Below, in pieces: positions 14,173-54,342 of a stretch of 64,000 nucleotides of DNA. Source of the DNA: Eledone cirrhosa (lineage: Eukaryota); contig OZ024755.1 in assembly GCA_964016885.1 (NCBI GenBank), forward strand, positions 7,254,001 through 7,318,000, given 5' to 3'. Numbering within the stretch: position 1 is the stretch's first letter; the number at the start of each line of letters is the position of its first letter. The notes under the pieces were generated by a model. It searched no databases, was not told the origin of the DNA, and worked only from the letters and a program-made list of their open reading frames with translations. A program made the position numbers and the translations under genes.

Positions 14173-14250
14173 ACTCCCTGATGAAGAAAGGTATTCTCCA
14201 TGGTTTTGAACACTATGTATATCCCCTTTCAGAAACTAATTAGTTGGAGT
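14173..14250 (+). ncRNA. type I hammerhead ribozyme (family F) within a TA-flanked insert (~14095-14300)
   Basis: ACUCC-CUGAUGA-A-GAAAGG..CCUUUC-A-GAAA-CUAAUUAG-UU-GGAGU; palindromic stem III; GUU site. Confidence 0.85.
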
Positions 14251-14490
14251 GAAACTTAAGTAAGTTAATTATTATAATTTTTTTTATTTTACGTCTTTTA
14301 TATATATATATATATGGCACACATACACACCAATGTGACTCTTCCTCTATTCTCTCCCCGTCTCCCACTCTCTTATTCCCCCCTCACCTGTCATCTCTCC
14401 CTCTCATCCCATTTCTCTCATCCCTCCCCTCTCTCGTATTACCTTCAAACTCTCATATATCAAACTCTCATATATCAAACTCTCATATAT

Positions 14491-14600
14491 AAAGAGTCGG
14501 GACCCCAACGGCTGAGCTCCGGCCGTTTCGACAGCTAGTTCTCAGAACTAGCTGTCGAAACGCCCGGAGCTCAGCCGTTGGGGTCCTGACTCTTTTCCTA
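14491..14600. mobile_element. family A palindromic insert (3' half of hammerhead on both arms)
   Basis: near-perfect 110-bp palindrome; GAAA-CG(G)C-CGGAGCUCA-GCCG-U(C/U)-GGGG. Confidence 0.85.
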
Positions 14601-15344
14601 TGTATATATATATATATATATATATATATATATATATATATATATACACTCCGATATACCCCTGTATAATGTCTTTCTATACACCCCCTTCTTATATATC
14701 TGCTTCTATAATATTCATCTTATATAATTCCTTCCTATGATACTACTCCTATATAACTCCTATAAACGTTCCTATAATTATCCCCCTATATAACTGCTCC
14801 TTTATTACTCCTCTTGTATTACTTTCATATATAGAGGGTGTTGCCAAAAATGTATACATACTTCAACAGCATTCTAATCAAAGAGCGTATACATTTTTTG
14901 AAGAACACCCTGTATATATATCTGATCTTATATGACTGTTTCTATGTACACCCTTCCTATATAACTAACTGTTCCTATATAACTCTGCTCTTTTCTCGGA
15001 CGTCGACCTCATATTCTAAGCAATAAAATGATTATCTATAAACACTACCATCACCCACCACTTCAAACACCACCATCACCCACCACTTCAAACACCACCA
15101 TCACCCACCACATCAAACAACAACCTATAAAGTCATACGCTCTCCGAATTATTTGCATACTGCAGAATTTTACACATATACACACACATATATTGAACGA
15201 GATAAACCTATGAAAATGTTATAGTCATACATGTATTTTGCGTGTATATATATATATATATAAAAGGATCGATGGACTTTCGTCAAATCGGACCGAGGAA
15301 ACAATGTTTCCGTTAGTCTTTCCAGTGCAAATACTATCTATCGG

Positions 15345-15440
15345 TCGCAACTCCAGGTAGAAAGAGCAACGTGAAATAAAGTGTTTTGCTCAAGGACATA
15401 ACGCATCGCTCGGTCCAGGAATCGAATTCACAACCTCAAG
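15345..15440 (-). mobile_element. CORE-type SINE (family S2) fragment
   Basis: reverse of TGTCCTTGAGCAAAACACTTTATTTCACGTTGCTC. Confidence 0.75.
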
Positions 15441-15609
15441 CTTGTGAAGGCGTGTGGCTGAGTGGTTAGAGAATATATATATATATTACTTCTTCGACTA
15501 TTTATTTCTCAGAGGGTCATGGGGAAAGAGTCGTGAAACACTCCTTGCAGTGGGTTCTGTCAGACTCAACCATCAGTATATATGTTATATAGATATACTG
15601 TTTGTTTAT

Positions 15610-49897: not shown

Positions 49898-51202
49898 TAT
49901 ATATATATATATATATATATATATATATATATACGCACAGATTTACATATAGGGAATCCATTTTATATATTCTGAGAGATTATTTAGGCATACACTAATG
50001 GATCTTCTATTTTACATATTACTGAAACAAAAACGTATTTATATCCATTTATATATGTTTAAATTGCTCAAGACCGATGGTATGTCAGGAAGGCGTCCCT
50101 TCGACTCTATTTAAAGCTGAGCACTCTCTATAGGAATGATTTATATATATAAATCTTAAGATTTAAAAAGTTACATTGTTCTAACATTGCATTTTCCATT
50201 TTGACACGATTTTCACTTCGACCAGTTCCGGATTTAGAGTTTTCATTCAATATCATCAGACGACTATTTTGTAAGCAGACGATAAAATAAGTCAGGTGAT
50301 CTCAAGCAATTGATAAAGTTGAGAAATGATAAAGTTGATCATTTGAACTGAGCGATCAATGAGAGCTACAAGCCTCACGGATCGATTGTGACAATCATTT
50401 CATTGAAACGATCGATTAATTTACAAGACAGACGAATTTAGTGATAAAAAAATGTTATCACATCCAATTGATCTGCTGTTAGTGTATATAATATTGATGC
50501 AATTCCAGTGTTTAGTTGATGGATATCCGACATTAATATTCTTTACAAGACTTTCCTGTTTTTCTCCAATGGATAACACAGGTCTACAAGGTTTTTGGTG
50601 TTTAGGAAATAGACATCATTCCTATATAAAATCGGTCTCCTGATTCCAAATATAACCTTCTATTTGACCTATCAGATCTAGTTTTTAACTTATTGAACAT
50701 CCCTAAAGTCACTATGTATGTGTGTACGCCCAGTACGCAGTGTTCGTTACCTTATTCTAATTCTAAGTTTTTTTTTCTCAGAAAACTAGACCTGGTAGAG
50801 AAAAACTGAAGTTATATTTGAATTTAGCAGGCACAATCACTTAAGAATTCGTTGAAATATTCCAGGCACCAGACACACTTTTGTTGTTGTTGCCCAGTGT
50901 AATCAGTGGAGAAGGCAAACATGAATACACTTTACTTTTTGTTTTCTTACGATTTCCTGTGTTTGAGTGAAGTTACAACAAAACAAGAGTGGACAGAGCA
51001 TAACTGATTGGTAGAGATATTTCGTTTCCTATCATAAGGTCTCAGGTTCGATCTCACTACATTAACCAATGTGACTGTCTTATTTTGTAAGACGTTAGCC
51101 TGACACTACGGAATGATTTGGTTGTTATTTCAAACAGATCGAAAAATCCTTTCATAGTTGAACCTCTGACATTTATGCATTAGTATTATATAATAGTAAT
51201 CT

Positions 51203-51385
51203 TTTGATGTCGAGCTCCGTCAGCATTGTCTGAAGCTGTTCCGTGGTTTCAACGATGAGTACGATGTCATCAGCGAAACGGAGGGGGGTAAGTATCTCGC
51301 CGTTGATGTTGACACCGCCTTGCCAGCCAATGCCTCTGATGATCTGCTCGAGACACGCGGTGAAAAGTTTTGGCGAGATCGTAAT
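51203..51385 (-). mobile_element. RTE-clade reverse transcriptase fragment
   Basis: TISPKLFTACLEQIIR..GVNINGE..LRFADDIVL..EQLQTMLTEL, includes the (Y/F)ADD motif. Confidence 0.9.
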
Positions 51386-51779
51386 CTGCGTATAACTAAC
51401 TTTGTATAAGTTATTATATACATGTTTATACACACACACACATAAAAAGCTACATGCGCGCATCACACACACACACACACACACACACACACACACACAC
51501 ACACACACACACACACACACACACACACACACACACACTCTGTCTGTCTGTCTGTCTGTCTGTCTGTCTGTCTGTCTGTCTGTCTCTCTCTCTCTTTTTT
51601 TGTAAGACATTAGCCTGAGACCATAGAATGATTTGGTTGCTATTTCAAACAGATCGAACAATCCTTTCGTAGTCGAACCTGTGATATTTATGCATTAGTA
51701 ATCTATTAACCCCTTTTAGTGGTTTCAGTCATTAAATGGCGGCCATGTTGGGGCACTGCCATCGACATGGGCCACAACT

Positions 51780-52222
51780 ACTGAGGATATGCGACTATTG
51801 AGGATATGCGACGGATGGAGAGAAATGAAGCAAGCATGCTCCGTTGGGTGTGTAATGTCAATGTGCGTGAACGACGAAGCATAGCTGAGTTGAGAGAGAA
51901 ACTGTGTATAAGAGGGATAAGTTGTGGTGTGAAGGAGAGAAGACTGAGATGGTATGGACATGTGATGCGCATGGACGATGACCGGTGGGTAAAGAAGTGC
52001 CAAGAAATCCCAGTAGAAGAAAGACGCAGTAGAGGAAGACCACGAAAAACATGGGCGGAGGTGGTGAGAGCAGACCTCAGATCGCTGAAACTCACGGAGG
52101 AGATGACAAAAGACCGTGACAAGTGAAGAGATGCTGTGCTGAATAGGACCCGTTCCACCCTAGCAGGCAGGGAAAATCGGACGTAAAATAATGATGATGA
52201 TGATGATGATGACGATGATAGT
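51780..52222 (+). mobile_element. RTE-clade LINE 3' end with (GAT)n tail
   Basis: ERNEASMLRWVC..RRLRWYGHVMRM..RSRGRPRKTW..DRDK*R. Confidence 0.9.
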
Positions 52223-54148
52223 GGTGATCTTCTCTTGTATTCTTCAAATGTGGTACTTGTTTTATCGAACTGCTAAGTTACGAGACATAAACAGTGATAG
52301 GATTGGTAAACCGAAAGCTTGCTTAAGGTGCCACGCATATGGACTGAACCCGACACCACGTATTTAAGATTGCGGACTCTTTAACCGCACGGGCAAGCAT
52401 ATTTATTTATATATTTTATCAATGGTCATTTTTTTTCTTCTTCAATTACACGTCAGTACTTTGAATCTATCATATTCAATCTTTACGCTTCCAAACTCCC
52501 CCCCCCCTCTCTACACACTACTCAGAATGGGAGTATAAGAGCTTTATGTAAATATGCCATTATTTGAATGTAATCATAACGGATATTATAAAATTGAGCA
52601 CATTACATATTTTAGAATTTTTTTTTCAATAGAAATAATTACATTTGTCTGTATTCATTTGTTTCAATATATTCTTTATTACACTATATTAAATTGCATG
52701 TGCTTGCTTCTTCCCACACTCTTTCACACATATACACACATGTTTATATATATATATATATATATATATATAAAAATAAATATATGTTTATATTTATATA
52801 TATGTTTATATTTATATATATGTTTATATTTATATATATGTTTATATTTATATATATGATTATTTTTATATATAAATGTTTATATATATATATATATATA
52901 TATATATATATATATATATGTTTATATTTATATATATGATTATTTTTATATATAAATGTTTGTATATATATATATATGTTTATATATATATATATATATA
53001 TATATATAGAGAGAGAGAGAGAGAGAGAGAGAGAGAGAGAGAGATACACGTGTGTTTCTGTGTTAGTGTTATGCTTGTTTGTGTCCGTGCGTGTGAGTGT
53101 GTGTGTGTGTGTAGGTGTGTGCGTGAACCTGCAAGTAATTTCAGTATTTCTGGTGTGTGAAAGTATGTTATGAGATTATATAGTACACTACAGATGTAAT
53201 AATAGATGACATGTATACGCTGTAGTGAAACTCTAGAACGGGACGTTAAAGGTAAAGAGAGACTGATAGGAGATGTGCGGAAACGTGTTAAGATACATAC
53301 ATACATACATACATACATACATACATACCTACATACCTACACACACACACACACACACATATATATATATATATATATATATATATATATATGTGTGTGT
53401 GTGTATATATACAGCATTGGAACTACAAAACAAGACGTTAAAAGTAAATAGAGGCATATAGAGACGAATGGTGAGAAACAGGGAGTAAAGACAATAGTGT
53501 GAGAGAGGTATGTATGTGTACACACATACACACACATACACACACTCATATATATATAGGGAGAGAGAGAGAGAGAGAGAGTGATATACATAGAGAGAGC
53601 GAGAGAGAGTGACATACATAGAGAGAAAGAGAGGGAATGAGAGTGACATACATAGAGAGATATAGACAGAGTGAAGGGGAAACTAGAGTGAAATGGAATG
53701 CTGCTTCAAGAGAAATTGGCAAAATTCTGTATTAAACCTGATCTTGCTAATGAAATGTCGAATTTGTGTAGTATTACTATGTGATCGATTATAAAGCATA
53801 GAGTGAATGAGATCGATTATGATACATAAGAGTGTGAACAAGGTAACAAAATGTTCACAACACGTGACTTTATATAGATAGAAAAATTGATACATAGAAA
53901 AAACATGTACATTGTTCATATATACACAAGGACTGGCTGACAGATTTTATGTAGAGTTCTCTCCTTATACCTCTTCATCACTCACATTAATTCTATGTGT
54001 TTGTGTATAAGTATATATAAATACGTGTGTTTGTGTACGCGCATATATATATATATATATATATATGCGCGTTACACCTCTGTTCTTTTAAATAAATATA
54101 TATATATATATATATATATATATGTGTGTGTGTGTGTAAATAAGATAA

Positions 54149-54342
54149 GTTTATCCCGGGTTCAATCGGGAGTAACCACAGTAAGTAAGGTACTCCATAC
54201 AAAGCAGAATATAAATATTTAATGAAGAAAAGTTTCTACAGGACTAGAACTGTTTTATTCCGGAGAAATCATCAGGAAGCCCTGATGATTTCTCCGGAAT
54301 GAAACAGTTCTAGTCCTGTAGAAACCTTTCTACATTAAATAT
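54149..54342. mobile_element. family B inverted pair, two hammerheads head-to-head (centre 54280/54281)
   Basis: consensus GCUUC-CUGAUGA-UUUC UCCG GAAU-GAAA-CAG UUCUAGUC CUG-UA-GAAGC. Confidence 0.88.

Follow-up and report, generated by a model that had tools for sequence, protein, structure and literature searches.

Minimal type I hammerhead ribozymes were described by Cervera and De la Pena (2014, PMC4209133) in the pseudo-long terminal repeats (pseudo-LTRs) of metazoan Penelope-like elements (PLEs). Their helix III is described as small or missing altogether, with some positions palindromic, and helix II as often long; they occur in many heterogeneous families per genome, mostly as single truncated copies, with opposite-strand pairs 100-700 bp apart. 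A palindromic helix III and dimer activity have already been published for these ribozymes (PMC4209133, PMC6765202): no cleavage was seen with one minimal PLE hammerhead on its own, dimers and trimers were of low activity, for which the authors invoked other factors (PMC4209133), and the tandem-dimer idea is stated outright in a review (PMC6765202), through which the small PLE-associated dimer-cleaving variants of Lunse, Weinberg and Breaker, with a diminished stem III and a palindromic loop, are also known. Non-LTR retrozymes and amphibian satellites carry a type I hammerhead with a weak palindromic helix III in head-to-tail arrays of 150-450 nt units; dimers of the axolotl satellite retrozymes cleave much better than monomers, and monomers of coral and mussel retrozymes cleave at ~0.8 and 0.1 per minute (PMC7229834). 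Insertions of endonuclease-containing (EN+) PLEs of the clades Penelope/Poseidon, Neptune and Nematis show 5' truncation, an adjacent inverted truncated copy, a tail of 30-40 bp at one end and a (TA)n bias (Craig et al., 10.1101/2021.04.23.441226), and the role of the PLE hammerhead is still open in print (10.1101/2021.04.23.441226, PMC11167929). We found no description of such motifs in octopus in the literature searched, with most subscription journals outside its coverage. Here we analyse the hammerhead motifs in a 64,000-nt stretch of Eledone cirrhosa contig OZ024755.1 (positions 7,254,001 to 7,318,000; hereafter the window).

The motifs are best explained as 3' end fragments (pseudo-LTR plus tail) of about ten PLE lineages, with a helix III symmetry inherited from parents that paired two hammerheads per tandem transcript, and we put the probability of this explanation at roughly 0.78. 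A tandem transcript of the parental PLE would carry two hammerheads whose helix III sequences pair, giving a double ribozyme; insertion would cut off the CUGAUGA box (box 1) or bury the motif in a fold-back, and with decay of the cores the dispersed copies would mostly be silent. Directly observed are the type I anatomy, an excess of loop symmetry, the conservation of the palindrome in one lineage (F), 5' truncation, fold-back pairs, one-sided tails and (TA)n flanks. A first-pass annotation of the window had taken palindromes in stem III as a sign that most families are dimer-dependent; the motifs are real, the symmetry is real but partial, the mechanism is known and its generality was overstated.

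Type I hammerheads were sought by a descriptor search with eight local Markov shuffles as background, which at a score of at least 8 recovered 10 sites in the window as compared to 0-3 per shuffle. Family grouping was derived from a masked self-BLAST of the window and yielded families A (with subfamily A'), B, C, D, E and G and the singletons F, 7957, 12318, 17767 and 43021 (Table 1). The family letters were rebuilt from the helix III strings quoted in the first-pass annotation, all of which are present: CUAG of B within ACAGUUCUAGUCCUGU (54304+, 54253-, 24366+ and 24336-), GAGCUC of A within ACGGCCGGAGCUCAGCCGU (e.g. 40592+), AUAUGUAU of G (35454+, 44350+ and 43955-) and ACCUAAGGU of E, with a second occurrence at 19092(+). 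That annotation left out 43021, 12318 and a family (12161/28507/49852) for which C is a new label. An ungapped census of helix III sites counted 36, with three or more deleted arms (62852+, ~32910+ and ~38830+) escaping it; both core boxes and a closed stem I are found in 8 of the 36, including one with a broken helix III and three inside fold-backs. The type I features (CUGANGA and GAAA boxes, an NUH cleavage site, three helices and an open stem I) are all found in F, E, G, D, 12318 and 43021, and in family B only across copies. None of the 11 ungapped family A sites has a CUGANGA box upstream, the 30 upstream letters displayed for family A in public-run reads stop short of any box, and that A is a hammerhead is something we only infer. 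All three family C copies that reach box 1 (12184-, 28530- and 49829+) read CAGAAGA or CAGGAGA instead of CUGAUGA, and this shared U4>A is either a family-wide core variant or the mark of a dead subfamily.

The characteristics listed above for the PLE hammerheads of PMC4209133 are all shared by this set, and its U3-A8 core variant resembles 17767, where the U3 and A8 of box 1 (UCGAUAA, 17709-17715) match a variant published for Cercyon. In contrast to PMC4209133, families A, B and C have a helix III of 4-5 bp with loops of 7-9 nt that are still symmetric in the middle, the triplet at several sites is GUU, CUU or AUA, and no open reading frame (ORF) was seen. With the variants of Lunse, Weinberg and Breaker (via PMC6765202) the diminished stem III, the palindromic loop and the PLE association are shared. 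Matches to CTGA.GA...GAAA at 23120, 27055, 31396, 51273, 51336 and 51781 were dropped for absence of the closing stems; those at 27055(-) and 31396(+), which start with CUGAUGAGUCC and have GAAA downstream, are possibly decayed hammerheads from another family. Also discarded were the core ATG as an ORF start, with stops within ~16 codons in B, D, F and G, and the idea that the CUAG found in family D's stem II belongs to helix III. The exact 30-letter family A pattern had no match in metagenome contigs.

A hairpin is by its nature self-complementary, and symmetry was therefore tested at loop positions only. Of the 20 free symmetric loop pairs in 11 lineages, 13 were Watson-Crick as compared to 5.4 expected (P = 0.0004); without D and 17767 this became 10 of 17 (P = 0.006), and the short and long helix classes were each above chance (P = 0.005 and 0.04). 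A second test, in which duplex energy was compared with that of randomised loops lineage by lineage, gave P values of 0.003 (17767), 0.03 (A), 0.06 (D), 0.11 (F), 0.17 (G), 0.19 (B), 0.28 (C), 0.42 (E), 0.49 (12318) and 0.75 (43021), and P = 0.003 when pooled over these 10 lineages (Fisher). The P values are optimistic, as the lineages may be related, and the excess of loop symmetry is real but moderate, inflated by related lineages. The claim of a self-complementary helix III in most families is supported by the loop symmetry in part: 43021 is non-palindromic, ACGU occurs in one of the three D copies, and E is an ordinary triloop hairpin for which 42% of random loops dimerise equally well. 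For the lineages that had been overlooked the loops are UUU (43021), ACU (12318) and CGAUUCU (C, partly symmetric). The proposed palindrome AUGCAU (7903) was rejected as a functional one: it lies at 7914-7909(-), outside the range it had been assigned to, and one base out of register, the in-register AUAUGCAU having two A-C mismatches and a computed duplex energy of +7.0 kcal/mol. The symmetry might be a by-product of AT-rich short hairpins and few related lineages, with the motifs belonging to non-autonomous tandem retrozymes or short interspersed element (SINE)-like elements that are active as monomers. The unremarkable symmetry of E, the modest values of G and F taken singly and the architecture shared by F, E, 12318, 43021 and 17767, which may not be independent, all fit this alternative, but the pooled symmetry exceeds chance in both helix classes and we consider it very improbable.

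That the palindromes should be conserved in family consensuses had been set beforehand as a test of the dimer idea, and for F and A they are kept. Within the window CUAG is kept in all six B sites, 8 of the 12 aligned A arms carry an unbroken GAGCUC, and between A and A' all three non-palindromic loop bases differ but none of the six GAGCUC bases. Helix III of G is pairable in 4/4 copies, one being the perfect palindrome AUAUAUAU, and that of E is identical in 2/2, while D has ACGU in one copy and AUGU (still pairable) or ACCU in the others, so that 2/3 are pairable. Read evidence at the family level covers F and A, from four public runs mapped on 14095-14598, in which both are high-copy families, a second organism included. 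The two changes listed in the F palindrome have depths of 45/311,399 and 0/305,660 in contigs of run X1 and 0/191 in run X4 (the second organism). For A, the reads have G restored at 14563 and C restored at the cleavage position (~85% of reads in run X5), and among the 40 of 116 entries listed no change lies inside GAGCUC. The depth over F (14146-14264) falls in the X1 contigs from ~300,000 at helix III to ~1,000 at box 1, and about fourfold in restriction-site-associated DNA (RAD) reads; this suggests that most F copies lack box 1, and part of the drop could come from restriction cuts and from the window copy having diverged.

Whether helix III can close within one copy was evaluated with nearest-neighbour energy models, to which the catalytic core is invisible and which can guide but not decide. 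D is the only lineage too short to close any monomer loop. A monomer helix III of 2-3 bp with a 3-4 nt loop is predicted for F, E, G, 17767, 12318 and 43021 (+0.4 to +4.7 kcal/mol), and one of 4-5 bp for A, B and C (-1.4 to -6.5 kcal/mol; A -5.4 to -6.5, B -1.4); the statement that several are too short for a monomer hairpin is thus accurate for D, but F, E, G and 17767 form 2-3 bp unstably and A and B close stably. For F, E, G and 17767 a duplex is preferred over two hairpins by a computed 9-18 kcal/mol, and the computed energies favour the two-copy duplex for D, F and 17767 and less clearly for G and E. In an in-silico tandem the F helix III, with a probability of 0.15 as a monomer, forms across copies at 0.99, and cross-copy helices appear at 0.93 for C, 0.84 for the D copy at 40140 and 0.63 for E. 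These models predict that D needs a partner, that F and 17767 strongly prefer one, that E and G are ambiguous and that A, B, C and 43021 close helix III alone. A tandem same-strand partner does not occur in the window, the nearest same-family, same-strand site being 5,435 nt (A), 8,896 nt (G) or 15,579 nt (D) away, and all near neighbours of hammerhead sites are on the opposite strand.

In its strong form the dimer idea holds that nearly all families are strictly dimer-dependent and that this dependence keeps solitary copies harmless to host pre-mRNA. The excess loop symmetry, the instability predicted for helix III of single D, F, G, E and 17767 copies and the failure of a lone minimal PLE hammerhead to cleave (PMC4209133) speak for it, but A, B and C close helix III alone and 43021 lacks a palindrome, and we regard this form as improbable. 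Dimer dependence of most families, as the first-pass annotation had it, is in line with the published PLE connection and with the energies of the short-helix lineages, but it fails for A and B, which have a helix III that is stable alone, and the tandem model gave no cross helix for G, 12318, 43021, B and 7957; the efficient cleavage it ascribed to dimers is documented for axolotl (PMC7229834), whereas minimal PLE dimers and trimers are of low activity (PMC4209133).

The anatomy of the insertions connects the motifs to PLEs. A (TA)4 tract lies within 150 nt downstream in 27 of 32 sites as compared to 32% of random places, with a median distance of 61.5 nt versus 319 nt. Copies are 5'-truncated, 13 loci have an inverted second arm, and by manual count a tail is present at one end only in 12 of these and at both ends in none. 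These traits are shared with the EN+ PLEs (10.1101/2021.04.23.441226), of which the Naiads clade was excluded as a source since Naiads lack hammerheads; clade assignment would need protein sequence. A motif scan for a GIY-YIG end gave nothing credible in the window. From this anatomy we infer a PLE origin of the fragments, and finding no PLE ORF among the 148 of 293 open frames scanned is expected for end fragments. A retrozyme or SINE-like origin would also account for the missing PLE ORF, but fold-backs with one-sided tails are PLE traits. Unlike the retrozymes of PMC7229834, the motifs form no head-to-tail array of 150-450 nt units among 150 of 201 tandem-repeat rows, which argues against retrozymes, and no same-strand neighbours of hammerhead sites occur within 5 kb.

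Several observations weigh against an origin from PLEs with paired helices: i) the pooled energy test falls to P = 0.08 without D, 17767 and 7957; ii) the in-silico tandem gives no cross-copy helix III (P ≤ 0.04) for G, B, 12318, 43021, 7957 and the D copy at 16859; iii) invertebrate retrozyme hammerheads with a 2-bp stem and a tetraloop cleave well as monomers (PMC7229834); iv) RAD reads show two palindrome-breaking F changes at 14-20%; v) Rfam has no family at gathering score in the window, and local searches at three sites gave only chance matches, with no hammerhead family at E ≤ 10 at 3/3 sites tried; vi) the tails, at ~65-100 nt, are longer than the published 30-40 bp; and vii) no PLE reverse transcriptase or GIY-YIG match was found in a Pfam scan of 148 of the 293 masked open frames. 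The frequency in the RAD reads is probably inflated through a restriction cut at the AAUU centre that enriches mutated copies, the reads with these changes ending there in 80/117 and 35/57 cases. The missing Rfam match weighs little because minimal variants are usually found with descriptors; in an Rfam E-value search of the window microsatellites dominate the best 150 of 570 matches. Given the missing PLE ORF, PLE membership rests on anatomy.

Cleavage might be gated by the element's own protein instead of by dimerisation, with the palindrome being secondary. This is compatible with the PLE explanation, and we consider it possible though doubtful. Cleavage by the hammerhead of the Anolis PLE Poseidon required the element's protein, and versions with catalytic mutations could still transpose in vitro (PMC11167929), the weak minimal PLE dimers led to other factors being invoked (PMC4209133), and every copy in the window spans the cleavage site uncut, which implies that uncleaved or re-ligated RNA served as template. 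Protein gating alone does not explain the retained symmetry, and no protein of these families is known. A different role for the palindrome is conceivable in A, B and C, where it lies in the loop of a helix III that needs no partner to be stable and where, in A, it came through the divergence of the subfamily unchanged while all other loop bases were replaced. It could serve dimerisation through kissing loops, bringing together two element RNAs for template switching rather than cleavage, with the hammerhead fold steering the stop of reverse transcription and the fold-back, so that insertion itself disarms the ribozyme. The inversion centres of fold-back pairs fall inside the ribozyme (14543, 19991, 24345, 38813, 54278, 55656, 62833 and 12190), within stem II in A and at box 1 or stem I in B and C, and ~157 nt upstream in G; ascertainment bias is possible, the loci having been found through the motif. 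We think this unlikely to be the explanation, but the combination seen in A, B and C, a stable helix III with a symmetric loop and inversion points that lie within the ribozyme, is the one lead worth keeping.

Most of the sites that lack a box or stem I are disarmed by truncation, fold-back or core decay, palindrome or not, and these simpler routes are seen directly. The fold-back pairs of A, B, C and G form long hairpins on either strand, 79-93% paired in the folding model, that would bury the motif. The intact solitary copies left are F at 14178, G at 35413, 12318 and 43021, the last without a palindrome, and dimer dependence would matter for only these four or so. Dispersed copies are probably mostly silent, chiefly via loss of box 1 or burial in a fold-back at insertion, combined with core decay. 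Strict dimer dependence as the safeguard of the host is further weakened by the 28 of 36 sites already without a box or stem I, by the burial of most paired copies in fold-backs, by same-family, same-strand copies 5-16 kb apart that could share one long transcript, and by the absence of any identified host gene among the 148 of 293 open frames scanned. According to a 2026 preprint, retrozymes are under-represented in Xenopus introns (10.64898/2026.07.22.740005), which shows that the question of tolerance is being asked, for arrays.

Table 1. Hammerhead-related sites in the window (positions in the window; both, arms on the two strands;., no strand assigned).
Feature	Positions	Strand	Characteristics
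C fragment	4158..4219	-	no in-register box 1
7903/7957 site	7903..7962	-	CUGAUGA at 7957; GAAA>AAAA; in-register helix III AUAUGCAU, not palindromic in register
C fold-back pair	12042..12232	both	one-sided tail
12318, best-formed complete singleton	12309..12372	+	9-bp stem I; helix III ACUACUGGU; GUA site; z -2.26
B single arm	12417..12541	-	tail present; no box 1
F, complete type I hammerhead	14173..14250	+	stem I ACUCC/GGAGU; CUGAUGA at 14178; long stem II; GAAA; helix III ACUAAUUAGU at 14235-14244; GUU site
A fold-back pair	14491..14595	both	GAAA; 5-bp helix III; GAGCUC in 9-nt loop; GUC/GUU site; both arms without CUGAUGA box; no tail
D minimal hammerhead	16828..16863	-	both boxes and stem I; palindrome broken (ACCU)
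17767, degenerate singleton	17704..17781	+	box 1 UCGAUAA (U3, A8 as published variant, plus U4>C); perfect ACGCGCGU helix III at 17768-17775; GUA site
E, complete hammerhead	18942..19017	-	helix III ACCUAAGGU at 18955-18947(-), 3 bp and triloop; partner is inverted partial copy 19089-19105(+)
A' fold-back pair	19924..20138	both	one-sided tail; GAGCUC retained, other three loop bases changed; no CUGAUGA box
G copy	20195..20256	+	A9>G (CUGAUGG); helix III AUAUAUAU, perfect palindrome
B fold-back pair	24309..24468	both	one-sided tail; + arm GAAA>GGAA; - arm without box 1
D copy	24557..24592	+	G8>A (CUGAUAA); helix III AUGU
C	28465..28635	.	box 1 CAGAAGA; 5-bp helix III, CGAUUCU loop; tail at other end
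A' fold-back pair	32702..32942	both	one arm with internal deletion; one-sided tail
A single arm	34175..34230	+	palindrome broken (CAGCUC); no box 1
A inverted fragment	35013..35164	.	one-sided tail; GAAA>GAGA; broken palindrome
G element	35254..35500	+	complete hammerhead 35405-35470; AUAUGUAU; AUA site; inverted tail 35254-35322
B fold-back pair	38691..38859	both	decayed cores; CUAG retained; one-sided tail
D minimal hammerhead	40136..40171	+	perfect ACGU (40163-40166); both boxes; first stem I pair mismatched; GUU site
A single arm	40575..40630	+	between (TA)n tracts; GAGCUC intact; no box 1
43021, complete singleton	43015..43082	+	helix III ACCUUUGGU; loop UUU, not palindromic
G fold-back, ~510 nt	43897..44498	both	one complete hammerhead on each strand (C3 at 43996- and 44309+); one-sided tail
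C single arm	49822..49894	+	box 1 CAGGAGA
B fold-back pair	54149..54338	both	+ arm (C3 at 54282) with both boxes, stem I lost at inversion point; - arm GAAA>AAAA; one-sided tail
A fold-back pair	55525..55711	both	one-sided tail; beyond the range of the first-pass annotation
A fold-back pair	62776..62966	both	one-sided tail; beyond the range of the first-pass annotation

The window is AT-rich and microsatellite-laden, with interspersed repeats and fragments of long interspersed elements (LINEs), and no host exon was recognised in the Pfam scan described above. It is animal-like, one SINE family presumably resembling cephalopod repeats. An abundant SINE-like family of ~200 nt occurs at 3426-3652, 5737-6063, 7617-7810, 16361-16520 and 19114-19323, with further copies at 36380-36590, 43172-43527, 49196-49365 and 60828-61173. 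LINE fragments lie at 51176-51427(-), 51785-52126(+), 10287-10799(-) and 30098-30409(-); the first has an RVT_1 match (LINE-type fragment; E = 0.00016, below the curated cut-off), and the other three, which have no Pfam match, we take to be RTE, Tx1/L1 and CRE-type C-terminal pieces, respectively. One C2H2 zinc finger match (E = 0.00018, below the curated cut-off) at 63555-63857(+) is probably a retroelement ORF end or a small exon. Minisatellites without any hammerhead occupy 36794-37530 (92 nt x 8), 15647-15945 (29 nt x 10) and 6790-7110 (79 nt x 4), and further fold-back elements, flanked by (TA)n but with no hammerhead core detected in them, are found at 13712-14017, 44579-44716, 48486-48599, 49104-49165, 55099-55507 and 5640-5740.

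The findings extend the list of animal genomes in which PLE-type hammerhead families are numerous, and they carry a caution: a test of hairpin symmetry has to be confined to the loop, and what has killed most genomic copies is something other than dimer dependence. With ~36 sites in 64 kb and graded helix III lengths (4 to 19 nt), such a genome, given its whole annotated sequence, would be a good test bed for dimer dependence versus intron tolerance.

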